Assembly: GCA_039030515.1 (NCBI GenBank)
Contig: JBCCEA010000043.1
Coordinates: 1 to 31,644, forward strand
Source: Myxococcota bacterium
GTDB taxonomy: Bacteria; Myxococcota_A; Polyangia; Polyangiales; Houyiibacteriaceae
Direction: 5' to 3'
Length of the DNA: 31,644 nucleotides
Notes under the pieces: generated by a model
Seen by the model: only the letters and a program-made list of their open reading frames with translations
What the model was told of the DNA's origin: nothing
Database searches by the model: none
In this document: piece after piece, positions 91 through 29,430 of the stretch
Position numbering within the stretch: position 1 is the first letter of the stretch
Layout of the letters: the number at the start of each line of letters is the position of its first letter
Made by a program: the position numbers and the translations under genes

Positions 91-428
91 CCAGCGGGTC
101 TAGGTTGGTCCAAACAGCAAGCGCCCCGGAAGCGCAGGAGTGAAGGCGTACTTAAGGTACGTTGAGCGACGAGCATCGGAGGTAAGCAGCTGTTTGGGCC
201 GACATAGGCCCGCTGGAGCGCAGACGTGAAGGCGTACTTTGAGTACGTTGAGCGTCGAGCAGCTTCGGTCAGCGGAAGAATCAGCCGGCCTCCTACACGC
301 CACAGACAGGCCGAGGGGGGTTGATTCTTCCTGCGCCCACGCAGCGCAGACGTGAAGGCGTACTTTGAGTACGTTGAGCGTCGAGCAGCGGAGGTAAGCG
401 GAAGAATCAGCCGGCCTCGGCCTGTCTG
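91..428. repeat. Cluster of REP/MITE-like palindromic repeats (three copies of a CGTAC-N5-GTACG core unit inside long inverted repeats)
   Basis: The unit AGCGCAG..GTGAAGGCGTAC-N5-GTACGTTGAGCG.CGAGCA occurs at ~131, 217 and 343. Inverted repeats lie at 91-118/189-216 (24/28 match) and 303-331/400-428 (26/29 match). Confidence 0.85.
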
Positions 429-1147
429 ATGAAGTCGACGTACTGACCATGCGTAATACAATGCCCCCAAACCCGAATCGTATCGCCCGGCAGAATATCT
501 GGCGGAATTTGCACGACGTAAACCGTTTCTTTTCCACTATTGGTGGTCCGGTCTACCCCTCCAAAAGCGCGATAGCGTCCTGAACTTGTGGCCGGGTTGT
601 TGGGCCAAGTACCAAACCTTGTTTCTAATTCGATCGCCTCGTCAGCCGTTGCCTTTCGAAGCCGAATCCAATTGTAGTAATGCCCTTCGGGATTATCGTC
701 GGTTGGAGACGCGTTGGGATGTTTGACATGCCCTTTGGAAGGATCGCCCCACATCAGTGGAAGCATTCCTGAGGGAATCTGAGCCGAGTCTATCTCAGGG
801 ATGTAAGGCAGGTGTTTGCCGAGGTGGGCGACTTCGCCATCCGGTCCATTGATCGAGTCCCGATAGGATTCTGGGATGGCGCCTCGGTTTCCACGGGTTC
901 GATTGAACGCGATCGCGTCCCAGTCTGCCGGCTCCATCCATGGAATAGGCAGGGCTTTTGCACTCTGTAAAGCGTCACTGGACGCCACCTGCAAGTCTAT
1001 CGCTGCTCCGGAGGAGAGAGATTCACGCTCGGCTCCGGTCGAGACGCCTCCACTGCGGCGACAAGCGACAAAGCTGGGCCAAACCGCTGCTGCGACTCCT
1101 GCCCCCGCGAGCTTGATAAAGTGCCTTCGTTTTCCGTCGTGCATCAT
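407..1147 (-). CDS. Tat-exported (probable lipo)protein with superoxide reductase/desulfoferrodoxin-like iron-site motifs
   Basis: N-terminal KRRHFIK, hydrophobic stretch and FVAC lipobox-like site. Ordered motifs GKHLPYI, KHP, GHYYNWI and HCITHG parallel the SOR motifs EKHVPVI, HPM, HYIEWI and YCNLHG. Confidence 0.6.
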   Translation of the reverse strand: MMHDGKRRHFIKLAGAGVAAAVWPSFVACRRSGGVSTGAERESLSSGAAIDLQVASSDALQSAKALPIPWMEPADWDAIAFNRTRGNRGAIPESYRDSINGPDGEVAHLGKHLPYIPEIDSAQIPSGMLPLMWGDPSKGHVKHPNASPTDDNPEGHYYNWIRLRKATADEAIELETRFGTWPNNPATSSGRYRAFGGVDRTTNSGKETVYVVQIPPDILPGDTIRVWGHCITHGQYVDFIRQAEAG

Positions 1148-1241
1148 TCACCTCGAACCAAGCTAGTGTATTCAAGCGCGGCCTTCACAACTCGCGCTTT
1201 CGAACAGTCAAAAATCTAACCTAGGTTGAATTCAAAACCAC

Positions 1242-2774
1242 CTAAATGGAAGCCAACCGAGATAGAAAGTAGGATCGAATTTCCGCTCGCGAGCGCTTGA
1301 GACTTCTCAGCGAAAGAGGCCCTTCACCCGGCATTGCCGCAGCGACTAGGCGAGGCCGCTCATGAGAAGCGAAATATTCGTAAAGCAACTCACGAAGCCC
1401 AGCTGGCTGAAGTTCTGCAAATACCGCGACCATCGCGATCCGCTCGCCCCACGTATCGTCTTGTACGCCAAAGACGCAAACGTCCCGAAGTTCGGGGATG
1501 AGCTGCAGCAAACGCTGCTCGAGTTCCACCGGATCGATATTTTCACCACCCGTTATGATTCTATCGGACTCTCGGCCAACGACTTCGATCGACCCATCGG
1601 GATACATCCGGCCTAGATCTCCCGTACGAAACCATTGATAGGGCGAGTGCACTGTAGCCTCACCGAGGTAACCCGAAAAGAGCATCGCTCCCCGCACCTC
1701 CAGAGGTCCAACGGAAGGTCGATGCGACGCAGAAGACACCCGTATGTCTGCGCCCTCAACGGGCCAAGCCCGAAGTCCTCGAGGCCCTTCAGTGGCTACT
1801 TGCGAGCAAGTTTCAGTCATGCCGTAGGTGAGCCGCACAGGCAAACCGCGTTTCCGTGCTTCATCCACCACATCCTTCGGACATGCGGCTCCACCCACGA
1901 GGAGCGTTCGCAGGCTTGGACTGAACGTAAGGCCTGCATCTAAAAGTTGACGCAGCATGGCCGGAACTAAAGAGGCTCGCGTGATCTGATGTCTATCGAT
2001 CGATTCGATGACCGACTGAGCAGCGAACCGTTCACCTCCGAGCACGACAGTACTTCTTGCAGCCACCATGCGGAGGATAATCGATAGTCCTCCGATATGA
2101 GCGGGAGGCAGCAACAAAAGCCAGCGCTCCGTGCCATGCTGAATAGGCCCCAGTCGCTCCTCGCTCGCCAGAACTGAAGCCGCAAGGGCACGACGAGACA
2201 AGGTAACGACCTTTGGCTTCCCCGTAGTGCCGCTCGTGGTGATGTACAGCACTGGAGTTTCCAGCTTCGTCGGCTCCCGCCAGTGACTCCCCGCGTCCAC
2301 CATAAAGCCCGGTAGCGGCTCGCTGACGTCAGGGAGGCTGGATTCTTGACAAGCGTCTATGCGAAAATCGGAATCTTTCGAGTCGACACAGATGGAAGCG
2401 CCAACACGATGCAGTCGACGCGCACGTTCTATACCGGTCAGCTTCGGGTGCACCAGCACGAAGGGACGCTCTTGCTCGAACAGCGCAAGCATCCAGATCA
2501 CCGAGGAGACGTCAAGTCTTGGACAAAACCCGAGGTTAGAGTTTGTATCGAAACCATCGAGTGCGTCTCGGGCTCTATGCACCAGACACGCAAGCTCTGC
2601 ATAGGTCAGCGATTCCAGGTTCTCCTTGGGATCGGTCGACGGCAGCGAAGGCCTCCAGGTCAGCGCGGTTGCCTCCGGCGCTTCTCTTGCCGCTGCAAAA
2701 ACGGAGAGTCTGCCCGCATGCTTCCTCGCTCGACATACGGCACGCTCGATTTGCTCGTGCACGGGCATGCTCAT
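1242..2774 (-). CDS. menE: o-succinylbenzoate--CoA ligase
   Basis: AMP-binding motifs TSGTTGKPK, YGMTET, FRTGDLG and GGENI; HIGGLSI; men cluster context. Start moved to ATG 2774, which forms an ATGA overlap with the menC stop. Confidence 0.9.
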   Translation of the reverse strand: MSMPVHEQIERAVCRARKHAGRLSVFAAAREAPEATALTWRPSLPSTDPKENLESLTYAELACLVHRARDALDGFDTNSNLGFCPRLDVSSVIWMLALFEQERPFVLVHPKLTGIERARRLHRVGASICVDSKDSDFRIDACQESSLPDVSEPLPGFMVDAGSHWREPTKLETPVLYITTSGTTGKPKVVTLSRRALAASVLASEERLGPIQHGTERWLLLLPPAHIGGLSIILRMVAARSTVVLGGERFAAQSVIESIDRHQITRASLVPAMLRQLLDAGLTFSPSLRTLLVGGAACPKDVVDEARKRGLPVRLTYGMTETCSQVATEGPRGLRAWPVEGADIRVSSASHRPSVGPLEVRGAMLFSGYLGEATVHSPYQWFRTGDLGRMYPDGSIEVVGRESDRIITGGENIDPVELEQRLLQLIPELRDVCVFGVQDDTWGERIAMVAVFAELQPAGLRELLYEYFASHERPRLVAAAMPGEGPLSLRSLKRSRAEIRSYFLSRLASI

Positions 2775-4102
2775 GATCCGGCCTCGTCTATGAGACACTC
2801 GGTCGCAATCGCAGACGCTAGAGAAACCCCGTGGCCTCGGCCCAACACCGGACGGATGAAGAAGTCCTCTCTGTAAGGCTTGGGCAGCGCAGGATGCGGA
2901 CCGAGACCTTGCGCGGTGATCGAATCTGCACGGCACGCGCTTTTTGTTTCTGCCGGCAGAGAAGTCGCCCAAAAGAGCGCAAAGGCCAATTCTGAAGAGG
3001 CCACCTGCGCCACCGCTGACGAGAACAGATGAGAGATCACCCATCTGAATTGCGATGATCTCAAAAAGCGTTGAGCTGAGAGGGCCAGACGCAAACAGGC
3101 AGAAAAGCCACCGAGCGCCATCGGCTTCAGCACCAAGAAAGCCACCTTTTCGCGCTCCAGTAGGACCTGCAATCCGTCGATGTCCGAATGCTGCAGCGAC
3201 TCGTCAAGCGCTATCGGCATATGCAGCGCCGTCGTGTGAAGCGCTTCCAAGCGCGACTGAGGGCCGCTTTTCCCCCAACGAGAATCCAAAGGCACATGTG
3301 GATCTTCGATAAGTTTGATTGGCTCTTCGATAAATTCGATGGGAACGTCGCTTAAATTGGCCGCGAAACGTTGAAATTGCGACCAGCTCAAAGCTCCATT
3401 CGCATCGAGCCGAAACCGGCAGGTCCCTTTGAGTTGACGGTGGAGGTGACGCACCCAAAGGGCATCTTCATCGAGGGTCGCTGGCGAAATCTTAAACTTG
3501 AGCGTCCGCGCTCCTTGATCTAACGATCGCTCGACCAGTTCCTGCCGAAATGTTTCGCCTGTGGATGCCGGAGGTACAAGAGCCGCGACCGGTAATCGCG
3601 CATCGACCTCGGCCACAGATCGTCTTCGAAACCGGTGCACGAGAAGAGACGCAAGCGAGATACCGAGATGGCGCGCAATCCAGTCGAGTAGCGCGGTTTC
3701 CAAAGCAAAGCGGGCGCTCGGAATCTGCGTACAAAACGGTAAGACCTGAAGCCGATCGCACCACCACTGCAGGGCTCGCCTCTCGAGATGCGGCGCGTCT
3801 GCTGTCGAGATTTCGGAATCACCTGCCGCCGGATCCCGCGTCGAGATGTGTCGAAGCTCGCCGAGAACCTCTTCGAGCCAGTTTGAAACGCGAGCCTCGT
3901 CGATATCGCGTAGCGCCTGATTCGCTTCCTCGAAAGTCTCCTTAGAGTATCCGGGCAGTGGGGCCGCTTCCCCCAGGCCAACCTCGTCCAAATGACGATG
4001 AAAGAGGAAGATCGCCCGCCGCTCACTCCACCGGTGCTTTGCATTCTGTGCCGGCTGCGGGAGGCACCATCGACGCCGAACACAGTTCAAACGAGGAGTC
4101 AT
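2771..4102 (-). CDS. menC: o-succinylbenzoate synthase (enolase superfamily)
   Basis: GLGEAAPLPGYS, KFK, RLDANG, EEP, ALDES and VLKP motifs. Start placed at ATG 4102, 4 bp after the menA stop. Confidence 0.9.
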   Translation of the reverse strand: MTPRLNCVRRRWCLPQPAQNAKHRWSERRAIFLFHRHLDEVGLGEAAPLPGYSKETFEEANQALRDIDEARVSNWLEEVLGELRHISTRDPAAGDSEISTADAPHLERRALQWWCDRLQVLPFCTQIPSARFALETALLDWIARHLGISLASLLVHRFRRRSVAEVDARLPVAALVPPASTGETFRQELVERSLDQGARTLKFKISPATLDEDALWVRHLHRQLKGTCRFRLDANGALSWSQFQRFAANLSDVPIEFIEEPIKLIEDPHVPLDSRWGKSGPQSRLEALHTTALHMPIALDESLQHSDIDGLQVLLEREKVAFLVLKPMALGGFSACLRLALSAQRFLRSSQFRWVISHLFSSAVAQVASSELAFALFWATSLPAETKSACRADSITAQGLGPHPALPKPYREDFFIRPVLGRGHGVSLASAIATECLIDEAGS

Positions 4103-4106
4103 CGAT

Positions 4107-5045
4107 TCAAAAAAAGATTCCCAGTGCAAAAAGGACACCGAAGACAAGAAGCAACTTTGCTGTAGAAACCAGCACTGGATTGAGCCGGGTGCCCCGAAGG
4201 CGGACAAGGGCGCGCAGCATCCACAGCGCCCAGGGAAGCGTGATGAGCGGCAGTAGGATCGCCGCCGTTACGTGCCCTGCCCCCAAGAGCAGAAGCGGTA
4301 TCGCGTAGCTTATTCCGATCATCAAAGCGTACTCCAGGACTCCAGCCATCCGGCCGAGCTTCACCACCAGAGTGCGTTTACCGACAAGCACATCGGTCTC
4401 GCGATCGCGAACATTGTTCACCACCAAAATAGCCGTGGCTAGAGCCCCTACCGGAACCGCAGCCAGAATCGAAAGCAGGGGAACGCTACCAAGTTGAACG
4501 TATGCCGTGCCGCAAACCGCCACCAGTCCAAAAAACACGAACACAAACAGATCGCCAAGTCCATTGTACCCGAGCGGAAAAGGCCCGCCGGTATACGCAA
4601 GCCCTGAAAGGATCGAGAGCACCCCGATCCACACGACAGGAGCGCCACCGACCCAAACCAAGTAGAGACCTACTAGCACAGAAAGCGCAAAAACAAATAT
4701 CATCGCACGCTTGACTGCGTCCTGGGAAAGAATTCCGGCCTGCACCACCCGAGTAGGACCCAAGCGCTCTTCTGTATCCGCACCTTTTTGAAAATCGAAC
4801 AGGTCGTTGGCCAGATTCGTTCCAATCTGAATCAAGCAGGCACCAATTAGCGCCGCGAGTGCGGGCCAGACTCGAAATCCGCCCTCTTTGTAGGCGACCG
4901 CGCTTCCGACAAGCACCGGAACGAATGCAGCGGTAAGGGTCGCCGGTCGAATGGCCATCCACCAAGCGGCGGCGAGCGACACCTCAGTCTCCACCCCGGC
5001 ACGGCGCGATGCATGCGCCGCAGAAGCACTAGACCGGAAGGTCAT
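4107..5045 (-). CDS. menA: 1,4-dihydroxy-2-naphthoate polyprenyltransferase
   Basis: [48 protein letters not shown]; multiple TM helices. Confidence 0.95.
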
Positions 5046-5901
5046 CGATCCTCTCTTGGAGACACGTCTGAAGTATATGATCCGCTACCTGCGCCGGTGA
5101 CTCCAAGACGAGATTATGTCCACACTCGTCAAACGAATGCAGGGTCGCGTTCGGGCAGTGAAACCGTGCTTCTCTTGCAAGGTCGAGAAACTTCAAGTCG
5201 CGGGCTCCAACGAGAAAATGGACGGGCATCTCAAGATCCGGCAGATGGGGGTACATATCGGGCATGCGCGCTAAAGAGAGATTTTCGAGTGCTTTTGCGA
5301 GCCCAAAGGGGTCCTGACCGCAGCGGATCGCCCGCTGGGCGCAGCGTGCCTCCTTCGACACGCTGCGCTGCGTCGCAAAGAGAGGCAAAGCTTCCCAGTC
5401 GGACACGAACGATCGAAGCGACTCGGTGCGCAACTGGTGGATCCAGGGCGCTTCCCAACTCAGACGCTCCTGTCGTTCACGGAGACCTCTCAGTCCGGTA
5501 TGCGTCCCGATGAGCGTGGCTCCAGCAAACAAATGACCGTGCCGACAAAGCAATCCGAGCGCGAGTCTCCCCCCTAGAGAATAGCCGCAAAGATGCGCCT
5601 TTGTATCGAGATGACTCGACACGAGCTCGGCCAAACGGTCTACCTCTGCATCAAAGGTGCTTTGAGTCTGAACAGCAGAGAACGCACAAGAAGGCGGAGC
5701 ACAGTACTCCTGGGAGGAGGACTGAGTGACGACGTGCTCTGGGGAGGTGGACCGGGGGGGAAACGCAGCGCCCACGTGACCCAAAAGTGTCGGTCGAATC
5801 AACGACCAGTCTGAGGGCAGGTGAGCGGCCACCCCATCCCAACTGGCTGGTGCGCCGGTAAACCCGTGCAGAAGCACCAGAGGACTGACGTTCGAGCTCA
5901 T
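5029..5901 (-). CDS. menH: SHCHC synthase (alpha/beta hydrolase)
   Basis: LHGFTG, GYSLGGR nucleophile elbow, GARDLKF and GHN. ATG 5901 overlaps the menD stop (ATGA). Confidence 0.9.
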
Positions 5902-7706
5902 GTTTGACCCGTGGGACGTGCGATGCCCCGGGAATCGAACATCAGTCCATCCACACGAGCCCAATAGTTCTTTAAGTACGCAACCTCATCCCCTTTGCTG
6001 AGATCGATCTCCAACACCGAGGGTTCCGACGCTTCGATCGCCACCTTGAGCAAACGTTCGAGCTCGCCCGAATCGTGAGCGATGCGGTAGGGGAGACGGT
6101 ATTGCGCAGCCGCGTGCCGGAAATCGAGTCCATGCGAGGTGACAAAATGAGACGTTGCCGACCTGAGGTCATCACGTGCTCCAAGCGGCAAGCAGCGAAA
6201 TATCTGCCCGCCGTCGTTATTCAAAATGCAGATCACAAGCGATGCGCGCGCCCTCTCGCGGTTTCTGCTGGCACTCATGAGACTACCTAAATCGTGCAAG
6301 AAGCTTACATCGCCGATGGTCACTACCACGGGCTCCTCTGCCTGCAGCCAGGCTCCGACTGCACCCGCGATGTGTCCATCGATACCGTTGAGACCGCGCT
6401 GGGAAAGCACACGCAAGAAACTACCTTCACTTTGCGAGAATGAATCCGCATGCCTGATAGCGAGACTGTTACCAAGCATCCAGTACGCGCCCTGAGGGAG
6501 AGACTGACGAATTACTCGAAATACCTGGGCCACGTTGAACTCGGATGATGCAAAGAGTTCATCATCCAGCTGACGAACGCCTCCTGCCAGCTTCTGCCAA
6601 AGCTGAGCGTAGTCCTGCCGCGCGCACTCCACGGCCGCATTCCGCTCCTCGGGCACCGCTCGAAAGAATTCCTGCGGAGCCATCGCAAGTAGTGTGGTCG
6701 CAGTACCGTAAGGATCCGGCCATCCGTGCTCTGAGACGAGCAGTCGCGGGACTTCGGGACCGACGGATTCCATCAGTAGTTCAACACCCTTGGAAACCGG
6801 CGTATGACCTAGCTGGACGATGAGGTCGGGCCGGAGCGATCGTCGAAACGGAGAACGCAGCAAAGCGTCGAACGCACCAAAGCGCATCGGGTGGTGGGCA
6901 CCTCCGAAACGCAGGCCACTTGCCGGCTCAGGCAAAAGCGGCACCGAGTGCAGTTCTGAAAACGCCAGTGCCGAACTAAGAAAAGACGCTCCTTCTTCCA
7001 TCGATAGGGTGACAAAGGCGGGTCCGGCGATCAAAAGCGGTCGCTTGGCACTCTGAAGCATCCCGCATAGTTCAGCCGGCAACAGCGCATCTCCCCGTGT
7101 TGGCAGTTCGAGTCGAGTCGGAGCTTCCCCTCCGAATCCTGCGCCAGTGATGCCAATAGGTGGCTCAAACGGTTTTTTTGCCCTGACGTTGAGATGCACG
7201 GGACCGGGCTGAGGGCCGGTCGCACTATGGATCGCTCTCGATGCGGCTCGTCGCAAAGACGCGAGAGAGCGTTCGTCTTCCTGCGCTGATCCCAAGTCGA
7301 GAAAGAAACGCACGTGTCTACCAAAGAGATGTTGTTGGTCGACGGTTTGGGGAGCGCCCGCCTCATGCAGTCGATGAGGGCGGTCTGCAGATAGAATGAC
7401 GAGCGGCAGACAGGCAGCGGAAGCCTCGAGCACGGAGGGGTAGTAGTGGGCCGGTGCCGAGCCGCTGGTGCAGAGCAGCAACGCGGGCCTACCGGTGACG
7501 CGAGCATGTCCCAGCGCCATGAAACCGGCGCTCCGTTCATCCACAACGTCGACCACATCGAGGCTGGGATGGGCGTGCACGGCAAGCACAAACGGCGTGC
7601 TGCGAGAACCAGGACTCAGAAACACCCGGGTGATGCCTGAGCGTGCGAGCGCATCCACCAAAGTTTCCGCCCAGATCGCTTGCGCTTTAGAGATCGGCTG
7701 CTGCAT
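5898..7706 (-). CDS. menD: SEPHCHC synthase (ThDP-dependent)
   Basis: SPGSRSTP, DERSAGF.ALG, CTSGSA, ADRP, GNSLAIR, RGLNGIDG and GDVSFLHD...NNDGGQIF. Confidence 0.96.
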   Translation of the reverse strand: MQQPISKAQAIWAETLVDALARSGITRVFLSPGSRSTPFVLAVHAHPSLDVVDVVDERSAGFMALGHARVTGRPALLLCTSGSAPAHYYPSVLEASAACLPLVILSADRPHRLHEAGAPQTVDQQHLFGRHVRFFLDLGSAQEDERSLASLRRAASRAIHSATGPQPGPVHLNVRAKKPFEPPIGITGAGFGGEAPTRLELPTRGDALLPAELCGMLQSAKRPLLIAGPAFVTLSMEEGASFLSSALAFSELHSVPLLPEPASGLRFGGAHHPMRFGAFDALLRSPFRRSLRPDLIVQLGHTPVSKGVELLMESVGPEVPRLLVSEHGWPDPYGTATTLLAMAPQEFFRAVPEERNAAVECARQDYAQLWQKLAGGVRQLDDELFASSEFNVAQVFRVIRQSLPQGAYWMLGNSLAIRHADSFSQSEGSFLRVLSQRGLNGIDGHIAGAVGAWLQAEEPVVVTIGDVSFLHDLGSLMSASRNRERARASLVICILNNDGGQIFRCLPLGARDDLRSATSHFVTSHGLDFRHAAAQYRLPYRIAHDSGELERLLKVAIEASEPSVLEIDLSKGDEVAYLKNYWARVDGLMFDSRGIARPTGQT

Positions 7707-9195
7707 CCAACGCTGCGCTCATCGAAAGATCGGCTGCCGCATCTACTTTTTTGCGCAGAGTCGGCAGTGCCCGCATCACAGCCCGCATTTTCAGCTCTGT
7801 TTCCGAATACTCAAGCTCAGGGACAGAACCTGCAACAATCCCCGCCCCAGCATAGACGAAGGCGCGGTCCCCGTGAACCAAGCACGACCGCAAAGCGACC
7901 CAAAAATCACCATCACCGTTCGCATCAAGCCATCCGATAGGCCCGGAGTACCAACCACGAGAGGCAGGCTCTTCGCGTGCAATCAGCTGCTGCGCTCGCT
8001 CTTTGGGAACGCCTCCCACAGCAGGTGTGGGATGCAGCGCATCCACCAGGTCGACGATGTGGCTACGCTCCCGGAGCTGTCCGCGAACCAAGGTTTGGAG
8101 ATGCGCTACGTCTTGCAGCTCTAGGAGACCCGGCGCGGGGTCTACGATCACTCGAACGCATCGAGGCCTCAGCTCGGCGACAATGGCGTCGACCACCATT
8201 TGATGCTCTCGGAGATCCTTGTCGCTGCTCAGCAGCGTCTGCTTTGCCTCTGCGGCACTCGATCCTGCAAGGGCTTGACTGTAGACCTCACGGGCTCGCT
8301 TTTGCACCAGTCGCTCTGGCGTCGCTCCCACAAACAGCCTACCCGATCGTCGGAACACAAACCGTGTACAGTCTGGATATCTTTCACTCAGATTGTGAAT
8401 GATAGTCTCCGGCCGCGGCATTGAATTACATCGCAGCGAAGCACGTCTAGCGGCCACCACCTTACTCAGCTCGCCTGCCTCAATGCCGCTCAGGATATCT
8501 TTTACGCGTGCGATGAAACTGCACTCGGCCTCATCTTCCAAGGCAAACGCCGCATCGCCTGATTTCTGCACCTCGCTTGCAAAACTCAGGTGAGCCATCG
8601 CAAAGGTCAGTCGGCCGACCTTTTCATCTATGATTTCTGGGGAGAGCCGATCTTCGTTCACGACAAGGCTGAGTAGAGCTCTTCCTCTCTCCACAACGTA
8701 TGTGAGTTCCGGCAGCGTAAAACTCGCGTCGCCATAGGGGGACCAGGAGCTCTGTTCTGCTCCGCCAGGGGCGAAGGCAAAGCCGCCAAACATTCGAAGA
8801 TCGCCGCCGTCCTCCGGACCCAGAAAGCACATCTTTGCGAAACATTCTTTGGCCTGTTGCCGGACCGAGGCGAACCGAGCACTTCCGACTCCGGCGCAGC
8901 TCCACACCGATCCGAGGGCTGCCGCAGAGGGTCCCTCCTTAGGCAACCAGACGACCGCGTCCTGAGATTCATCAAACGATAGAAGACGCTCAGGACGAAC
9001 TAGAGGCGCTTCAATGGTGCATACCAAGAGGCGGGTACCCTCAGAGGAGTGAGGATCGGAGTTTTGGCAATAGCTTTGAAGTCGACTTCGAGCCGCTTCG
9101 ATGCCCTCAAGGTCTAGCTCGACTGAGGGCGGCAGGGTCACTGAGGGCGCCGAAGCCACTGAGGGCGCCGGGGCCACTGAGGGCGGCAGGGTCAC
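7687..9195 (-). CDS. menF: Isochorismate synthase
   Basis: FGGFAF, KVVAAR, GATPERL, ALAGS, KDLREH, LHPTPAVGG, RGWYSGPIGW, LRS and AGAGIV..S..E..ET..K. Start set at GTG 9195 (GTGA overlap with the menG stop); the longer upstream frame overlaps menG. Confidence 0.92.
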   Translation of the reverse strand: MTLPPSVAPAPSVASAPSVTLPPSVELDLEGIEAARSRLQSYCQNSDPHSSEGTRLLVCTIEAPLVRPERLLSFDESQDAVVWLPKEGPSAAALGSVWSCAGVGSARFASVRQQAKECFAKMCFLGPEDGGDLRMFGGFAFAPGGAEQSSWSPYGDASFTLPELTYVVERGRALLSLVVNEDRLSPEIIDEKVGRLTFAMAHLSFASEVQKSGDAAFALEDEAECSFIARVKDILSGIEAGELSKVVAARRASLRCNSMPRPETIIHNLSERYPDCTRFVFRRSGRLFVGATPERLVQKRAREVYSQALAGSSAAEAKQTLLSSDKDLREHQMVVDAIVAELRPRCVRVIVDPAPGLLELQDVAHLQTLVRGQLRERSHIVDLVDALHPTPAVGGVPKERAQQLIAREEPASRGWYSGPIGWLDANGDGDFWVALRSCLVHGDRAFVYAGAGIVAGSVPELEYSETELKMRAVMRALPTLRKKVDAAADLSMSAALDAAADL

Positions 9196-9199
9196 TGAG
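9122..9199. repeat. 18-bp in-frame tandem repeat at the menG/menF junction
   Basis: ACTGAGGGCG-N8 units at 9122, 9140, 9158 and 9176, partial at 9194; encodes VTLPPS/VAPAPS/VASAPS/VTLPPS. Confidence 0.9.
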
Positions 9200-9914
9200 C
9201 CCCCTCCGGAACCTCCTGCCTTGGCTCCGCAAGATAGAGACAGCATACCCCAAAGGTGAGCGGCTGGATCGTTTTGACGGTCAGCCCAGATGCCTCCATC
9301 AGCGCAGCAAACTCCTCGGGAGAAGGAAAGGCCGCGATCGATTGCTGAAGATATCGGTACTCTCGCGAGCCCGACAAGAGTCCCCCGACGAACGGGACTA
9401 CGTTGCGCATATGGAATCGGGCAAGGGTGCTGAGAACGCCGGTGCGCGGCTCGGAGAGCTCTAGAATCGCGACTTTGCCACCTGGGCGGACCACTCGCGC
9501 CATTTCTCGCAAACCTTGAGCTCTGTCGGCCACGTTGCGAATCCCAAATGCGATGCAGCACGCGTCGAAGGTGTCATCGTCGAATCGAAGTTCCTCTGCG
9601 GATCCGGTTTCGAAAGAGACGTCGTGTACACCGTTCATCCGAAGCTTACGCTCCAGAACTTCCAGCATGCGAACGCTAGGATCTACGCCAACGATGGATA
9701 CATCCCTCTGCTGCCGGAGCATTTCGAAGACGACGTCGCCGGTACCGGTGGCCAAATCGAGCGCTTTATCTCCGGACTTGAGCTGCAAGGAGGCTACAGC
9801 GCGTCGTCGCCAGCTTCGATCGATTCCAAGAGAGATGATGCGGTTGAGTGCGTCGTAACGGCTGGCGATCCGATCGAACATCGTGCCGCTACCTGGACGT
9901 GCGAGTTCCGACAC
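9192..9914 (-). CDS. menG: Demethylmenaquinone methyltransferase (UbiE/MenG)
   Basis: MFDRIASRYDALNRIISLGID..WR, LDLATGTGD, FGIRNV and RVVRPGG...LE. Confidence 0.95.
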   Translation of the reverse strand: MSELARPGSGTMFDRIASRYDALNRIISLGIDRSWRRRAVASLQLKSGDKALDLATGTGDVVFEMLRQQRDVSIVGVDPSVRMLEVLERKLRMNGVHDVSFETGSAEELRFDDDTFDACCIAFGIRNVADRAQGLREMARVVRPGGKVAILELSEPRTGVLSTLARFHMRNVVPFVGGLLSGSREYRYLQQSIAAFPSPEEFAALMEASGLTVKTIQPLTFGVCCLYLAEPRQEVPEGAQ

Positions 9915-11107
9915 TAAGCCCCCCGTTGTTCTTCCGCGGCTCCGCCCGCAGCAACCTGTTTACGACGATGCAGGCGCATATGACCTCTTTGGATTCCTTC
10001 ACCAGCAAGCGCCTTGAGCGCGGCCAAATTGCTTGCAAGCCCAGCCGAAGCCATCACGAGCGCCAGTTCTTTGGCGTCCGCAGGACGGAGCAGTTCAAAC
10101 GCAGCGCGAACTCCCCGATGCACCCGGGTTGATCCGCCGATCGTGCCCGCAGCCATCGGCATCTCAAGTACGCCGACCAGGGTTCCCTCCACGCAGCGCC
10201 AGGTTGCGATAGGGCGGTAGGCGCCTGACATCGCTGCCCACGCGTGCGCCCCAGCTTCGATCGATCGCCAATCCTGCCCCAGGGCCACCGCAACAGCGTC
10301 CACCCCGTTCATGACACCCTTGTTGTGCGTCACGGCGCGGTAAGGATCTTTCTCGGCAAAAAGGCTTGCGCGCTCGATGCCCTTGGCCAGGTCTGCACCA
10401 CCGACCGCATCGATGCTGACCTCCGCCCGCACCTTCACGGTTCGCCGAACCGGCAGATTCGACAGAATCCGAAGGCCGATGCGACCACCGATTCTCAACT
10501 GAACTTCAGGCGCAACCGCCTCAGCGACGGAGTCGACCACGTTTGCGCCCATCGCATCGCCGACATCGACGTAAAAGTGGACCACTACCAACCCTTCATC
10601 GTGGTCTAAGACACGTACTTCGAGGTCGTGACATCCACCACCGCGCTGAACCATCCTGGGAATGGCGCGATTGGCGCAATCGATCAACGCTTCTCGCACT
10701 TCGAGCAAACGCTCTTCCGCGTGCTGTGGCTCAGGTACTTCGTCGAGCTGAACCTGAGTGGTCATCACGGGTCGGGTGGCTTCTCCGGTAAATCCTCCCG
10801 TCATGCGTACCAGCTTTGCGGCGTGGCTTGCGGCCGCAACCACCGAGGGCTCCTCCACAGCCATGGGCACCAGGCAATCTCGGTGGTTCACGCGGAAGTT
10901 AAGCGCGATAGCTAGAGGCAGTCCGTGGGTGGCCACCACATTTTCGCTCATGCTGTCCGCAATACCGGGCTCGAGTCCTCCACCTTGCAGCAAAAACTCT
11001 AGGGACTCCGGGGAGAGCAGTCCGGTGTCGCGGAGTCGAGAGATTCGATCTTCGAGAGTTCGCGTGTAAAATCCGGGAATGCGGCTTGTCGGGGTGGCTT
11101 CAGTCAT
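9914..11107 (-). CDS. mvaA: Hydroxymethylglutaryl-CoA reductase, class II
   Basis: SENVV, PMAVEEPSVVAAAS, GDAMGAN, ILSN, THNKG and NLAALKALAGEGIQRGHMRLH. Confidence 0.93.
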   Translation of the reverse strand: MTEATPTSRIPGFYTRTLEDRISRLRDTGLLSPESLEFLLQGGGLEPGIADSMSENVVATHGLPLAIALNFRVNHRDCLVPMAVEEPSVVAAASHAAKLVRMTGGFTGEATRPVMTTQVQLDEVPEPQHAEERLLEVREALIDCANRAIPRMVQRGGGCHDLEVRVLDHDEGLVVVHFYVDVGDAMGANVVDSVAEAVAPEVQLRIGGRIGLRILSNLPVRRTVKVRAEVSIDAVGGADLAKGIERASLFAEKDPYRAVTHNKGVMNGVDAVAVALGQDWRSIEAGAHAWAAMSGAYRPIATWRCVEGTLVGVLEMPMAAGTIGGSTRVHRGVRAAFELLRPADAKELALVMASAGLASNLAALKALAGEGIQRGHMRLHRRKQVAAGGAAEEQRGA

Positions 11108-11124
11108 CGATAGATCCGTAGGTC

Positions 11125-12210
11125 TCAGTTCATTCGGTGCACGGTCGCGCGTGCCACCGTAATCAAAGCCTCTTTCGCCTGACCGTTCGGGCAGGCAGCA
11201 AGCGCCTCAATCCCCAACTCTATCTGGCGCTGGGCCAACTTTCGGCAGCGCTGAGCAATGCTTGGTGCCTGTAGCGCCATAATGATTCGGTTCCATTCCT
11301 GTTGAAGACCGTCCAATCGCCCGTGGGCGGTAGCGACTGCGTGCAGACTGGGTAGCAGAGAGGGATCTTCCTCCAACGCTAGGATTAGCGGATAGGTGGT
11401 TTTGCCCTCGCGAAGATCGACAAAGAGTTCCTTGCCGAGCGAGGCTCGCTCGCCGGAGTAGTCGAGAAGATCGTCCACAAGCTGAAAAGCGATACCCAGG
11501 TGAAGACCGTAATTTTCGAGGGCCTCGCATTCAGTAGAGGCGAGTTCACCCGCACGCCCGCCTGCGAGTAGAGCCCAGCGAAAAAGGGCTGCCGTCTTGC
11601 CCTCGACCACCTGAAAATAGCTCTCCGCGCTCACTCTCGCCTGACCCCGATTCTCGAGCTGCAAGGCCTCTGCGGAGATCATCGCGTCGATGATCTCGAG
11701 GAGTCGATCGAGCACGTCAAGAAAGCTCGTAGAGCGCACGCGTCTGAGGGCTTCGATGAGCAACCAGTCACCCGCGAAAATCGCTGCCGCATTGCCGTAG
11801 AGCGCTCGAGCTGAGGGCTCCCCGCGACGGGTGTCCCCTAGATCGACTACGTCGTCGTGAAGCAAAGTGGCGTTGTGTACCAGTTCAGCGGCAACTCCGA
11901 GCTGCTTTGCCGCGTCGTTGAATCCAGCCCCGACCCGCGAGGCAAGCGCTACGCACAGAGGGCGCAATCGTTTGCCACCGAGGTCGACCACATGATTCGC
12001 GGCTCGGTGTACGGAGTGCGTTCCCCTAGGCACACCCTGAAACTCTGCGTGGAGTGCTGCCATGTCCGGCGCCACAAGCTGTGAGAGGCTCGTAAGCCGC
12101 TGTCCCAACGCTCCAAGACCCTGGGAGTCGCAGATTGTTTTCAGTCGCTCCAGCACATCGATAGACTGGGGCTCGGGGTGAGCGTCGCGAAGAGCTGCCA
12201 TCAAGGACAT
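11125..12210 (-). CDS. Polyprenyl (octa/heptaprenyl-type) diphosphate synthase
   Basis: GGKRLRP, ELVHNATLLHDDVVD...RRG (FARM), GKTAALF, AFQLVDDLLD (SARM) and DLREGK.T.P. Confidence 0.92.
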   Translation of the reverse strand: MSLMAALRDAHPEPQSIDVLERLKTICDSQGLGALGQRLTSLSQLVAPDMAALHAEFQGVPRGTHSVHRAANHVVDLGGKRLRPLCVALASRVGAGFNDAAKQLGVAAELVHNATLLHDDVVDLGDTRRGEPSARALYGNAAAIFAGDWLLIEALRRVRSTSFLDVLDRLLEIIDAMISAEALQLENRGQARVSAESYFQVVEGKTAALFRWALLAGGRAGELASTECEALENYGLHLGIAFQLVDDLLDYSGERASLGKELFVDLREGKTTYPLILALEEDPSLLPSLHAVATAHGRLDGLQQEWNRIIMALQAPSIAQRCRKLAQRQIELGIEALAACPNGQAKEALITVARATVHRMN

Positions 12211-17289: not shown

Positions 17290-18369
17290 ATGGTTGCACC
17301 GGGCGCGGAACTTTTTGTTCACCGAACCAAATCAGCGGCGTCGGGTTCCGGGGAAGGAGCGCAACTGAACAGCACGGAGGCTCCGGAGACACGAGGGTCT
17401 TGGAACTCGATCCAGGATCTAGGCGGAACGGCTCCAGGAAATCTGCAGGGCGCCATGCTCGTAGGTCGCAACTTGAGCGGCATTGACCTCTCCGGGGTCG
17501 ATCTTCGTAACGCGAATCTCGCCAATGCAAACCTGACGGATGCTGTACTGGTGGACGCCAAGCTGGATCGAGCGATCCTGCACGGGGCCAATCTGACCCG
17601 CTGTGAGTTTCACCGGGCGTCGCTGGTCGAAGCCAGACTTGAAGAAGTCGAGGGCACCCAGGCAGGCTTTGGTCAGGCGAATCTGAAGCGAGCGTCCCTC
17701 TTCGGCGCGGCATTGCGTCATGCAAGCTTTGTGCAAGCCGATCTGAGCCAAACGGATCTCCGCACCGCTGACCTCACCGAGACCAACTTTGATGGGGCCA
17801 ATCTGAGTGACGCCAGCCTGTGCCGAAGCATCCTTCATCGAGCAAATCTCACTCGCTCGCAAATCACGGGAGCTTCATTTCGCGAGGCGGATTTGAGAGA
17901 TGCGCAGGTTCGAGGCCTCACCGGCTTTCGCTCCGCGACGTTCATCGAAGCCGACATCCGCAACGTACATTTTGGAGGTGCCTATCTGCTCCGCCGCCAC
18001 ATCATGGACGAGGACTACATTCACGAACTCGCTCAGCGTGGAGGACTGTACAAGCTCACCTGGTGGATGTGGTGTATCACCAGCGACTTTGGCCGCAGTC
18101 TTCTTCGATGGAGCCTATTGATCGCGCTCATCACGATGGTGTACGGAGGACTCTACAGCGCCGTAGACATGGAATACGGTGAGCACGAGACCTTCCTTTC
18201 ACCTTACTACTTCAGCTTGGTAACCCTGACCTCACTAGGCTATGGCGACGTGCTTCCGGCTTCTACCACAGCGCAGGTTTTGGCAATGAGTGAATGCGTC
18301 GTCGGCTACATTATGCTGGGAGGTTTACTCAGTATCTTTGCAAATAAAATGGCGCGACGTGCGGAATGA
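17290..18369 (+). CDS. Pentapeptide-repeat protein fused to a 2-TM potassium-channel-like pore
   Basis: About 30 A(D/N)LXX-type repeats, followed by a TM helix, YYFSLVTLTSLGYGDVLP pore/filter and a second TM helix. Confidence 0.88.
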   Translation: MVAPGAELFVHRTKSAASGSGEGAQLNSTEAPETRGSWNSIQDLGGTAPGNLQGAMLVGRNLSGIDLSGVDLRNANLANANLTDAVLVDAKLDRAILHGANLTRCEFHRASLVEARLEEVEGTQAGFGQANLKRASLFGAALRHASFVQADLSQTDLRTADLTETNFDGANLSDASLCRSILHRANLTRSQITGASFREADLRDAQVRGLTGFRSATFIEADIRNVHFGGAYLLRRHIMDEDYIHELAQRGGLYKLTWWMWCITSDFGRSLLRWSLLIALITMVYGGLYSAVDMEYGEHETFLSPYYFSLVTLTSLGYGDVLPASTTAQVLAMSECVVGYIMLGGLLSIFANKMARRAE

Positions 18370-26172: not shown

Positions 26173-27609
26173 ATGCATTTCGACAGTCTCGACTACATCC
26201 TCTTTCTCACGCTCTCGGTAGCCGCGTACTGGGCGGCACGCGCCCATCCGCTGTGGCGCTTGGGAAGCCTCTTCATCGCAAGCTGCGCGTTCTACATGGC
26301 GTGGCATCCGCTTTACATCGTCCTCATCCTCGGTTCGACGGTTCTCGATTTTAGCATGGGGTTGCGCATTGCTCGGGCTCGGAGCCAAAGAGCCAAAAAA
26401 GCCTATCTCCTCGCCAGCGTGGTCGGCAATTTGGGGCTGCTCGGGATGTTCAAGTACTTCAACTTCGCTGCCCGAGTTGCGGTCGACGGCCTCGAATTGC
26501 TCGGGTACTCCTTGAGGGCCCCCTACCTCGATGTGCTGCTGCCTGTCGGTATCTCTTTCTATACCTTTCAGACCTTGAGCTACACCATCGATGTCTATCG
26601 GGGCAGATTGAATGCGACCTCCAATCCAATCGAATTTGCGGTTTTCGTAACCTATTTCCCGCAGCTGGTCGCCGGTCCCATCGTACGCGCCGCAGAGATG
26701 CTGCCCCAGTTGCGGCAATTCCCGAAACTCACCCGCCGGCAGTCGTCAGAGGGGCTCTTTCTGATCGCCACCGGACTGATCAAAAAGGTAGCGATCGCCG
26801 ACTACCTCTCGATCAACCTGGTCGACCGCATTTTCGACAATCCCGCCGGATACACCGCGGTAGAAGTCGTGGTCGGCCTCTACGGCTTCACGATGCAGAT
26901 GTACTGCGATTTTTCCGGCTACACCGATGTTGCCCGAGGCTCGGCCAAATTGATGGGTCTCGAGCTGCCGGACAATTTCGACCGCCCCTACCAGGCGACC
27001 AATCCTGCCGACTTCTGGCGCCGCTGGCATCAAACGCTTTCCAGCTGGCTGCGAGACTACCTCTACGTTCCGCTCGGTGGCTCCAGGTGCGGCCCAGTAC
27101 GCGCCTACTTTAGTTTGGCACTGACCATGTTTCTGATCGGGATTTGGCACGGCGCCTCGTGGACCTTTGTCTACTACGCCCTGCTCCAGGCGACCGCCAT
27201 GGTGCTGCATCGCTTTGTCCGCCGAAGAAGCAGACGCTCGAGGAACGACGCGGTACACCCGGCGGCCGTAAACGTGACGATGATCGCAGCGAAGATCTTC
27301 GCCAACCTGCAGTTTGTTGTGTTTTCTCGGATCCTCTTTCGCGCGACCGACCTTCAAAATGCGGTCGACGTCACAGAACGTCTGTGGTCCGGCCAAACCT
27401 CAACCGCGCAGATCACCCCCGCAGTGTGGTTCGTGCTCCTACTGAGCTTTGCGCTTCACTACACTCCGAAGCGTTGGTTTGAGCGTTTGGAGCGCGAGTT
27501 TGTCTGGCAGTCACCCGCGTTTCAGGCGCTGGGGCTGGTCGTGGTCGGGTGCATCCTCAGCTTGGTAGCCAGCGCACAGGTCGTCCCATACATTTACTTT
27601 CAGTTTTGA
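26173..27609 (+). CDS. MBOAT O-acyltransferase (AlgI/PatA family)
   Basis: FKYFNF, LPVGISFYTFQ, FPQLVAGPI, DFSGYTD, FWRRWH.TLSSWLRDYLY, GIWHGA and C-terminal YIYFQF. Confidence 0.95.
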   Translation: MHFDSLDYILFLTLSVAAYWAARAHPLWRLGSLFIASCAFYMAWHPLYIVLILGSTVLDFSMGLRIARARSQRAKKAYLLASVVGNLGLLGMFKYFNFAARVAVDGLELLGYSLRAPYLDVLLPVGISFYTFQTLSYTIDVYRGRLNATSNPIEFAVFVTYFPQLVAGPIVRAAEMLPQLRQFPKLTRRQSSEGLFLIATGLIKKVAIADYLSINLVDRIFDNPAGYTAVEVVVGLYGFTMQMYCDFSGYTDVARGSAKLMGLELPDNFDRPYQATNPADFWRRWHQTLSSWLRDYLYVPLGGSRCGPVRAYFSLALTMFLIGIWHGASWTFVYYALLQATAMVLHRFVRRRSRRSRNDAVHPAAVNVTMIAAKIFANLQFVVFSRILFRATDLQNAVDVTERLWSGQTSTAQITPAVWFVLLLSFALHYTPKRWFERLEREFVWQSPAFQALGLVVVGCILSLVASAQVVPYIYFQF

Positions 27610-27642
27610 ATGCGAACTCGAACGAAGTAGGCGAGCAAATCC

Positions 27643-29292
27643 TTGAGTCAGGAGTCCAAAGTCCGCCCGCCTGAGCGCGACGCATCCTCTGCGGGGCCAG
27701 ACCACCAGACCGAGGAGGCGGGGGACGAAACCCGCGCGGCGTTGAAGAGACTCGCCATCGTCGCAGTGGTCTTTGGAATCCTCACCGCCCTCAGCTATGC
27801 GTTCCCGGCCCTGGAGCCCGTGCGCCCTTTGCGGCCGGGAGATTCGATCCCCGTCGTTCGTGCATTCCAAAGCTGGGGCGGATCGAAGCCGCCTGGATTT
27901 GCCGGTCTTGGCGACAGCTATCGCCCGCCAGAACAGGAGCGGAGCACCATCGAGAAGTCACTCGGCGTCTCGGTGGCAGACAACCTTCGATCAGAGGATC
28001 CACCCGTTGAACCCACCGGCATCGAAATCCGAGCGGAGGAATATCAAGGCATCGAGGTCACGGTCGAGGATCCTGAGTTCAGAGGCTTGACGCCCTTCTT
28101 CGAGCAGCTCGTCCGCACTGCGAAAAAAGAAGCGGGAGCGATCACCCGCATCGCGCATCTTGGGGACTCCAGCATCGCCACAGATCTCATCACCCACACG
28201 GTGCGCCGCAACCTTCAGCTCCGCTTCGGGGACGCCGGCCATGGTTTCGTGCTGGTAGCGCGAGGCGCCCTACCCTACGGCCATCGAGACGTTCACCACA
28301 CCAGCAGCAATCACTGGACCACGCTTGAAGCGGTGCGCAAGCAGGCCCGTGATGGACACTACGGGATCGGTGGAGTTCAGGTCAGGGCACGCGCCGGAGC
28401 CTGGGCGATCTTTGGCACCGCAGAGCATCCCCGAAGCCCGGTAGGTCAGCGGATGAGCATCTTCGAGCTGCATTTTCAAAGGCATCCGAGAGGTCCCCGT
28501 ATTCGGATAGAGCTCGACGACCGGGAGGTTCGGTGGGTTGAAACCCGCTCTGAAGAGCCCGAAGACGGTCACGTACGCATCCAGCTCGAAGACGGACCGC
28601 ACCGGGTACAGGTTCGGCCAGGCCCTGGGGGGATCGCACGGCTGTATGGCGCGGTACTCGAGCGGGAGGTTCCGGGAGTGGTCTACGATTCGCTCGGCAT
28701 GGTCGGCGCTCGGGCCCGACGCCTATCGAATTTCGACGAGAAGCACATCCAGCATCAGCTTTCACAGCGTCAAACGAACCTGCTGATCGTCGGGTTTGGC
28801 GGCAACTCCGCGAGCGACCCGCTAGAACGCTCCGAATACAAAGACAACTATCGGCGTATGCTGCGTCGGGTGCGGGGTACGCTTCCGGCCATGGGCTGTT
28901 TGATCTTTGCCCCACTCGATCAGGGATACCGTCGCGCTGGACGCATTCAGACCCTCGAAGCTCTGCCTCTTATTTTGGAGTCGCAGCGCAGTGTCGCCTT
29001 TGAAGAGGGCTGCGCTTTTTTCAACACCTTTGAGGCGATGGGTGGAGCCGGCGCGATCGGCCGCTGGTACCGAGCGAAGCCGCGACTTGCTCTGGGCGAT
29101 TTGCGCCACGCCACCCCAGAAGGCTACTCCGTTATCGGCAACATGTTCAGCAAGGCGCTGCTCAAAAGCTTCGCGCATTGGCTTGAAAGGCCTGCCTTAG
29201 AAAGCACCTCGCCCAAGCGGCCACCCGTTCGGACGCCTCTTGACAGAAGCACGCCCTCCGACAGGAGCTCCGGAGAACAAGATCTGCGCTGA
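27643..29292 (+). CDS. Membrane-anchored SGNH/GDSL protein (PatB-like O-acetyltransferase/esterase)
   Basis: N-terminal TM; block I GDSS, FGDAGHGF, block II GMVGAR, block III GGNS and block V DLRH; directly downstream of the MBOAT gene. Confidence 0.82.
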   Translation: MSQESKVRPPERDASSAGPDHQTEEAGDETRAALKRLAIVAVVFGILTALSYAFPALEPVRPLRPGDSIPVVRAFQSWGGSKPPGFAGLGDSYRPPEQERSTIEKSLGVSVADNLRSEDPPVEPTGIEIRAEEYQGIEVTVEDPEFRGLTPFFEQLVRTAKKEAGAITRIAHLGDSSIATDLITHTVRRNLQLRFGDAGHGFVLVARGALPYGHRDVHHTSSNHWTTLEAVRKQARDGHYGIGGVQVRARAGAWAIFGTAEHPRSPVGQRMSIFELHFQRHPRGPRIRIELDDREVRWVETRSEEPEDGHVRIQLEDGPHRVQVRPGPGGIARLYGAVLEREVPGVVYDSLGMVGARARRLSNFDEKHIQHQLSQRQTNLLIVGFGGNSASDPLERSEYKDNYRRMLRRVRGTLPAMGCLIFAPLDQGYRRAGRIQTLEALPLILESQRSVAFEEGCAFFNTFEAMGGAGAIGRWYRAKPRLALGDLRHATPEGYSVIGNMFSKALLKSFAHWLERPALESTSPKRPPVRTPLDRSTPSDRSSGEQDLR

Positions 29293-29399
29293 GCCAGGCT
29301 TGCACGGAACCAGGCCTGCACTGAGCCAGATTTGCGTTGAGCCAGATTTGCGCTGAGCCAGGCTTGCACTGAACCAGGCCTGCACTGAGCCGGGTCTCT
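29288..29399. repeat. Degenerate 16-bp tandem repeat (consensus RCTGAGCCAGRYYTGC) x7
   Basis: Units at 29288, 29304, 29320, 29336, 29352, 29368 and 29384, between convergent SGNH genes. Confidence 0.9.
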
Positions 29400-29430
29400 A
29401 TGGCAGGTGCGGCTCGCGATTGGCCTCAGA

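Follow-up and report, generated by a model that had tools for sequence, protein, structure and literature searches.

The locus studied here raises two questions: what an exported protein with a superoxide reductase-like metal site does, and whether its position beside menaquinone (men) genes bears on its function. Superoxide reductase (SOR) is viewed as the anaerobes' cytoplasmic, rubredoxin-fed answer to superoxide; its Fe(II), held in a square-pyramidal site, converts superoxide to H2O2 and then needs re-reduction. The window, which is the whole 31,644-nucleotide stretch of DNA that was analysed, carries on its minus strand (407..1147) an open reading frame encoding a protein of 246 amino acids, P0001, which the original prediction took for a divergent, exported SOR-like lipoprotein that might be co-expressed with the men operon.

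Export signal and predicted metal site

The P0001 gene is present in a single copy in the 4.08-Mb source genome, which is 85% complete. Translation more likely begins at the second ATG (1144), since its spacing to a GAGG is better and the database record has the 245 amino acids that this start gives. The N terminus contains the anticipated twin-arginine motif (KRRHFIK, residues 6-12; 1112..1132, minus strand), followed by a lipobox-like FVAC (1061..1072, minus strand) with Phe at position -3 and Cys29 as the predicted lipidated residue. Signal models matched just below their thresholds, with 16.7 bits against a cut-off of 22.7 for Pfam TAT_signal (E 0.007) and 16.2 against 16.7 for TIGR01409; the pattern itself is family-wide. 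RRx[FLMVI] was found in 104 of 120 close homologues, together with a relaxed lipobox in 87 and with a strict lipobox in 61, and Cys29 is kept in 127 of 135 aligned rows; several distant members lack the twin arginine yet retain the Cys. The source genome encodes TatC. The predicted export signal is a trait of the P0001 family. Cys29 is followed by a linker of ~35 residues of low model confidence (pLDDT 54-66 over residues 1-60). P0001 contains just two Cys, C29 and C230, and thus lacks the four-Cys N-terminal desulforedoxin domain of 2Fe-SOR/desulfoferrodoxin (Dx-SOR).

At the other end of the gene, the last codons and the stop lie inside one arm (window positions 400-428) of a repeat, and the C-terminal tail of P0001 is a few residues longer than that of most homologues. 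This dispersed palindromic repeat is present in three copies at 87-428 of the window, with a 76-nt core, spacings of 86 and 126 and two long stem-loops. The genome contains at least 79 matches of at least 60 nt in ~52 clusters, 51 of which lie 1 kb or less from the end of a contig. By its appearance the repeat is REP/BIME-like.

A homologue search returned 235 proteins (clusters at 90% identity) at E ≤ 0.001, and the best 120 of these, which are 44-59% identical except for the window's own record, were used for the alignment. All four His and the one Cys expected in SOR order were present on the minus strand: GKHLP (806..820), which aligns to EKHVP and contributes Lys111 and the ligand His112; the HP of KHP, His143-Pro144 (716..721), which aligns to the canonical SOR HP and provides the second predicted Fe ligand; GHYYNWI, which aligns to HYIEWI and contains the third, His156 (680..682); and HCITHG (446..463), which aligns to CNLHG and contains His229, the predicted axial Cys230 and the fourth His, His233. 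The five predicted ligands are invariant in all 120 close homologues, which answers the concern that they might not be conserved. In the wider alignment of 135 rows, H112 and C230 are kept in 135 and H143, H156 and H233 in 134 each, all the losses occurring in a single degenerate member, P0131. The substitution of Gly for the Glu of the SOR EKH motif, a residue frequent in SOR though not required, was also borne out, Gly110 being present in 135/135 rows, and Lys111 in 132/135. Searching for the motifs in this order, with a pattern composed after sight of the P0001 sequence, gave no match in 20,000 shuffles and a single match among the 14,192 open frames of the genome, the P0001 gene itself.

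The family has two elements of its own. The first is a predicted helical subdomain at residues 68-112 (812..946, minus strand), which ends in H112 and is modelled by AlphaFold2 with helices at 78-90, 93-100 and 104-112 at pLDDT 97-98; N82, R85, G86, G89, I91, P92 and Y95 are invariant in 120/120 close homologues. The second is an insertion at approximately residues 166-207 (527..652, minus strand) with an invariant W181-P182 and G205. The loop between HP and the third His is 6-8 residues longer than canonical in most members; in three it is short, with the H-x5-H spacing of canonical SORs. Near-invariance extends to H108 (130/135; 824-826), H229 (121/135) and Met132 (133/135), which the original prediction leaves unmentioned, and is not explained by the canonical SOR mechanism.

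The conservation of H108 raises the possibility that His108 closes the sixth position of the iron, producing a saturated centre that would shuttle single electrons, or act as a redox buffer, between envelope cytochromes and oxidases and would not be a superoxide scavenger. H108 lies at i-4 from H112 on the same predicted helix, and cytochrome c, COX1-like or SCO1 neighbours are encoded at loci L032, L046, L052, L067 and L077. In one member, P0131, H108 is lost along with three of the four His ligands (H143, H156 and H233) and K111, the Cys and the scaffold being kept; P0131 is possibly a non-catalytic offshoot. Against a closed site, a few members, such as P0138 and P0140, have all five ligands but another residue in place of H108, the 80 loci share no conserved partner gene, and Lys111 is retained in nearly every row. 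The Lys before the first His of SOR serves in substrate steering. We consider this carrier role unlikely.

Kinship to superoxide reductase in sequence and predicted fold

Standard models do not detect the family. No Pfam domain was assigned to any of the best 120 of the 235 homologues; the scan of these members gave just signal-peptide models and scattered weak matches, and none matched the SOR model PF01880 at E ≤ 1. PF01880, which has a cut-off of 22.2 bits, scored P0140 (15.8) and P0137 (14.9) best among the members, and TIGR00332 gave at most 17.8 on family members against a cut-off of 61.9. Searching the sequences of solved structures gave no match with P0001, and six uninformative matches (E 0.14-1) with the family profile.

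For profile-profile alignment we took 20 domains of canonical SORs encoded in the same phylum, leaving aside four divergent exported ones and two fragments. Against these, a diverse family alignment of 25 rows gave an hhalign probability of 84.6% (E 6.8e-6) with KH, HP, H..W and CxxHG in register, that is, with all five ligands, whereas the alignment of the 120 close homologues gave a probability of only 15% (E 0.0017) over three histidines. The canonical-SOR profile recognised the short-loop members P0140 (E 4.9e-6) and P0137 (E 2.9e-5) within a set of ~155 proteins. These two members, with their weak PF01880 and TIGR00332 scores and the best scores on the SOR profile, bridge the gap to SOR.

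Structure prediction by AlphaFold2 gave a mean pLDDT of 86.8 for P0001, confident over residues 60-246, and of 88.5 for P0137. Foldseek with the P0001 model returned SORs at ranks 1 to 13 (E 2e-3 to 9e-3) and no match at E ≤ 0.001; with the P0137 model the best E was 1e-4, 14 matches had E ≤ 0.001, and an SOR-family structure occupied every row to rank 25 among the matches listed. SORs thus came top for both models, and the prediction of an SOR beta-sandwich survived this check. VIA-align placed SORs as four of the top five among 48,161 chains (Z 5.1-5.2), tied with fibronectin-III and other beta-sandwiches, and in a second comparison all of the top ten were SORs (Z 5.5-6.3, rmsd 3.2-3.9, 89-106 aligned residues). 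With Z of only 5-6, the fold alone cannot separate P0001 from other sandwiches, and TM by target was 0.35-0.63 in the structure comparisons. A feature search of the ESM Atlas, which we treat as a lead only, ranked PF01880 clusters first (0.84-0.85), and the structure search there found two unnamed Myxococcota clusters at TM 0.91-0.93. Row 8 of the same structure search was a cluster of 142 membrane pyrophosphatases (PF03030) in which the aligned part is a PF01880 SOR domain; it looks like an odd fusion, with a score under the tool's bar.

The models thus predict an immunoglobulin-like SOR beta-sandwich for P0001, with modest structural scores. No one test of kinship is strong; register, conservation and fold are in agreement. 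Judged from sequence and models, the P0001 family has retained the five iron-binding residues of SOR along with its predicted fold and is missed by the standard Pfam model, and the description of P0001 as a divergent, exported SOR-like metalloprotein is supported by ligand conservation, profile alignment and fold searches alike.

Another reading is an open, SOR-type iron site retuned to a different small substrate (NO, peroxide or O2) or to dismutation. The Glu is lost, divergence from PF01880 is extreme, and the large insertion and the helical subdomain, with their invariant residues, could gate access. We regard such retuning as very unlikely: no nitrosative-stress genes recur among 149 scanned neighbours, and loss of the Glu by itself fits superoxide reduction, going by the title of a reference listed in PMC3116461.

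The family is conserved tightly, comprises at least 235 clusters and is invisible to Pfam. A full-library search yielded 36 representatives at 50% clustering, 34 of which appear among the matches listed, with E below 1e-7. Record names are mostly Myxococcota, with Bradymonadia, Desulfobacterales, Acidobacteriota, Planctomycetota and spirochaetes also represented; since some record titles read Desulfobacterales, the carriers are not all aerobes. The distribution is patchy, the gene being carried by 15/61 relatives and, across the phylum, by 19/301 genomes, always with one copy per genome. No fused forms of 556-2000 amino acids were found among 8000 candidates, which is weak evidence; lengths of 432-555 amino acids fall outside this range.

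The menaquinone cluster and other gene neighbours

The P0001 gene lies, as originally described, 94 bp past a menE-like open frame on the same strand (1242..3044), the last gene of the men cluster. TIGR01923 is the best NCBIfam match of this frame (E 9e-71), yet the score is below the model's cut-off. The genes upstream on the same strand encode a polyprenyl synthetase, HMG-CoA reductase and a UbiE/MenG methyltransferase, and are followed by menF, menD, menH, menA, menC-like and the menE-like gene. The intergenic region (1148..1241) contains a hairpin, and G+C is 45% over 1141-1244 vs 58% for the window; a scan of 1148..1241 on the gene's strand found no consensus terminator or promoter.

This arrangement invites the reading that P0001 is a dedicated member of the men operon, co-expressed to draw menaquinol electrons or to clean up after menaquinol. 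The distance, the shared strand and the lack of a consensus terminator favour it, and menD is present in 14/15 carriers vs 32/46 non-carriers (Fisher P 0.09). Naphthoquinone respiration is described as making periplasmic superoxide and, in E. coli, as raising periplasmic superoxide defence (PMC6911176); the idea is independent of men adjacency. Comparison of related loci did not bear out a functional tie. An upstream menE was found in 0/102 testable loci; of 111 related loci, which include some redundant ones, these are the loci whose upstream flank spans at least 1.4 kb. Among 14 relatives with the gene, menD lay on a different contig in 12, at a distance of 420 kb in one and was not found in one, and was thus unlinked in 13/13 relatives with both genes. 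At L047 the head of a men-type operon is located 3-8 kb upstream, divergently on the opposite strand with unrelated genes between, and the single menE-like match, at L073, has 28% identity over 150 amino acids and lies ~4.7 kb downstream. The mature protein, moreover, has no predicted membrane helix for quinol binding. We therefore rejected a conserved men linkage, the absence of which had been named originally as a refuting outcome. As a family property, membership of the men operon is largely refuted and highly improbable; on these data the men operon is a chance neighbour of the P0001 gene, a local accident.

Several other features of the window were noted. HMG-CoA reductase and polyprenyl synthetase head the men cluster (9914-12210), likewise at L047, which suggests that the quinone side chain is mevalonate-derived and encoded with the head-group genes. 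No menB-like (naphthoate synthase) gene was seen among the open reading frames annotated in the cluster (4107-12210). The gene at 17290-18369 encodes a pentapeptide-repeat protein with an ion channel domain fused at its C terminus, and is followed by a gene for an HDOD protein. An MBOAT acyltransferase gene and two GDSL/SGNH-family genes at 26173-30975 have a layout that we take to be that of a polysaccharide or peptidoglycan O-acetylation system.

We examined 153 immediate neighbours in 80 loci, of which 149 were scanned, along with 80 further hand-picked genes. No conserved partner gene emerged across the 80 loci; promiscuous families aside, no neighbour family occurred in more than 7 of them, as delimited by a rough gene caller, and the largest cluster (16 loci) was promiscuous and includes protein kinases. 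Counts of palindromes and 8-mers over 63 upstream regions revealed no shared motif. Several themes recurred. An AhpC/TSA peroxiredoxin gene is directly downstream at L001, L004 and L007; Fur-family and AhpC genes are near the gene at L006 and Hsp33 at L074, and fatty acid desaturases at L001, L004, L016, L078 and L079. Genes for c-type cytochromes are directly downstream on the same strand at L032, L046 and L077, the product at L077 having seven CxxCH motifs, with a multicopper oxidase gene nearby. L032 (8737-11916), L046 (8761-11509) and L052 (4620-7986) encode a conserved pair of polytopic membrane proteins, both with a single CxxCH cytochrome c domain at the C-terminal end, and the first of the pair is found at L069 (1-1149); CusF, CcmH and MbnP/MauG-family genes are nearby. 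Most of the cytochrome neighbours belong to one clade, and a search of the source genome with the membrane cytochrome of L032 found no match. The L032 pair is similar to OR-C1 bd-type reductases as described (bioRxiv 10.1101/2021.01.16.426971); we do not claim that name for it, as there was no cytochrome bd Pfam match. These recurring themes are leads.

The cytochrome and copper genes bear on the possibility that P0001 is a lipoprotein that binds or delivers copper or another metal, using His, Cys and Met ligands on an SOR scaffold for oxidase assembly or metal handling. CusF near the gene at L032 and L052, MbnP with a di-haem MauG-family gene at L052 and L069, SCO1 at L067, COX15 at L049 and the multicopper oxidase at L077 would suit it, as would the conserved Met132 and the extra histidines, and the lack of Cu/Zn superoxide dismutase (SOD) in most carriers is compatible with copper use. 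Such neighbours, however, occur in ~6 of 80 loci, three or four of which represent one clade, the ligand set and its spacing exactly match the SOR Fe site, and the fold searches were led by SORs and not cupredoxins, a CopC structure appearing just at rank 48 (E 0.06). We regard a role in metal delivery as quite unlikely.

Gene content was compared across genomes. The source genome encodes, besides TatC, a Ni-SOD family protein, two COX1-family and two CCP/MauG-family proteins; searches of this 85% complete assembly found neither rubredoxin nor canonical SOR, Cu/Zn SOD or Fe/Mn SOD. Fe/Mn SOD is present in most carriers. A gene of the COX1 (heme-copper oxidase) family, which takes in NO reductases too, is present in 29/30 carriers, and the one carrier without it, G324, is also the sole carrier with a canonical SOR. 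The carriers are probably oxygen-respiring bacteria. Canonical SOR showed no co-occurrence signal (1/19 carriers vs 1.45 expected). Cu/Zn SOD was found in 0/19 carriers vs 58/301 genomes (3.7 expected, nominal P 0.015) and in 1/15 carriers vs 12/61 relatives (2.95 expected, P 0.14), and its absence within single families gave P of only 0.08-0.09. An exclusion between carriage and Cu/Zn SOD is suggestive only, the P values being nominal and uncorrected for kinship among genomes that are not independent.

Proposed mechanism and comparison with known systems

The analysis established the predicted ligand set, its conservation, the pattern of the export signal, and the kinship to SOR in sequence and predicted fold. 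From these we propose that P0001 is, on balance probably, a divergent protein of the SOR lineage with predicted Tat export, a lipid anchor at Cys29 and one iron, likely reducing superoxide to H2O2 in the envelope; sequences and models point to removal of superoxide in the cell envelope as the likely function of the whole family. The folded, iron-loaded protein would pass through Tat and then be held to a membrane by its flexible linker. Fe(II) would be bound by H112, H143, H156, H233 and C230 with the sixth site open, and Lys111 would steer superoxide to the open site, yielding H2O2 and Fe(III). With Gly in place of Glu, water or hydroxide would close the sixth site, and His108, one helical turn before H112, may give a proton. 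The Fe(III) would be re-reduced by periplasmic or membrane-bound c-type cytochromes, and since these rather than rubredoxin would be the donors, the quinol pool would be an indirect electron source only. Envelope peroxidases would clear the H2O2, and P0001 would fill the role played elsewhere by periplasmic Cu/Zn SOD. A 4His+Cys iron site is described for SOR in PMC7280497, which also reports that 1Fe-SOR in excess oxidised reduced cytochrome c in vitro, and a Glu-less neelaredoxin reduces superoxide according to the title of reference B112 in PMC3116461.

More doubtfully, the family may constitute a distinct, unannotated envelope SOR class of aerobic Gram-negatives that replaces Cu/Zn SOD, is fed by respiratory c-type cytochromes and not by rubredoxin, and uses H108 on the new helical subdomain in place of the Glu. 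If so, SOR chemistry would extend beyond the anaerobes' cytoplasm as an envelope defence of aerobes coupled to the respiratory chain. A family invisible to Pfam means that genome surveys undercount superoxide defences in the carrier lineages. It also makes testable the question of what re-reduces an SOR outside the cytoplasm: in Labilithrix luteola DSM 27648 (L032), which is cultured, the gene is directly ahead of the two membrane c-type cytochrome genes, a ready pair of enzyme and candidate donor. If the site is not that of an SOR, the family would represent a new use of the SOR scaffold.

The closest known system is centre II of 1Fe SOR/neelaredoxin (PF01880, TIGR00332), with which the family has in common the order and register of its four His and one Cys, a Lys preceding the first of these His, and the predicted beta-sandwich (PDB 4brv, 4d7p, 6gq8, 1y07, 2ji1). 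Unlike 1Fe SOR, all 120 members scanned lack a PF01880 match and Gly replaces Glu; the family adds the helical subdomain of ~45 residues, the insertion of ~40 residues and, in most members, the longer loop, together with a predicted export signal and lipid anchor, and its carriers mostly have a heme-copper oxidase family gene, with rubredoxin not found in the source genome.

Cu/Zn SOD (SodC, PF00080) has the same proposed compartment and target, whereas its fold and chemistry are unrelated and require no reductant; its gene was found in 1 of 31 distinct carriers of the P0001 family. Four shorter twin-arginine SOR-like proteins from the same phylum (L115:1117-1710, L116:1462-2163, L117:1480-2067 and L118:1483-2199) resemble the family in the RR signal, the Cys past the hydrophobic stretch and the lack of the Glu, with HCNxHG in L115 and L118. 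An hhalign comparison of these with the P0001 family gave a probability of 96% (E 4e-9), partly from the signal region. They differ in being shorter and in scoring barely above the PF01880 cut-off, and the P0001-family profile does not find them.

Exported SORs have been described before. SORGOdb predicted a TAT-SOR class of seven proteins in 2011 and describes sor genes as lying mostly among unrelated genes (PMC3116461), and in Sulfurimonas pluma the gene for a TAT-1Fe-SOR is transcribed, the protein having a putative role in the periplasm (PMC10066037). As described there, these proteins share with P0001 a twin-arginine signal before an SOR site and a proposed role in periplasmic scavenging, and the support given for them is prediction and transcription only. 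They were gathered as recognisable SOR domains, whereas the P0001 family goes undetected by SOR models and, going by those descriptions, differs in its predicted lipid anchor, its additional structural elements and its size, which is at least 235 clusters at 90% identity. Our literature search, largely outside subscription journals, found no biochemical study of an exported SOR and no mention of the P0001 family among the matches listed. An exported SOR and loss of the Glu are thus known ideas, the latter by a reference title; new are the architecture of the P0001 family, the failure of curated models to detect it and its occurrence across organisms that have respiratory oxidases.
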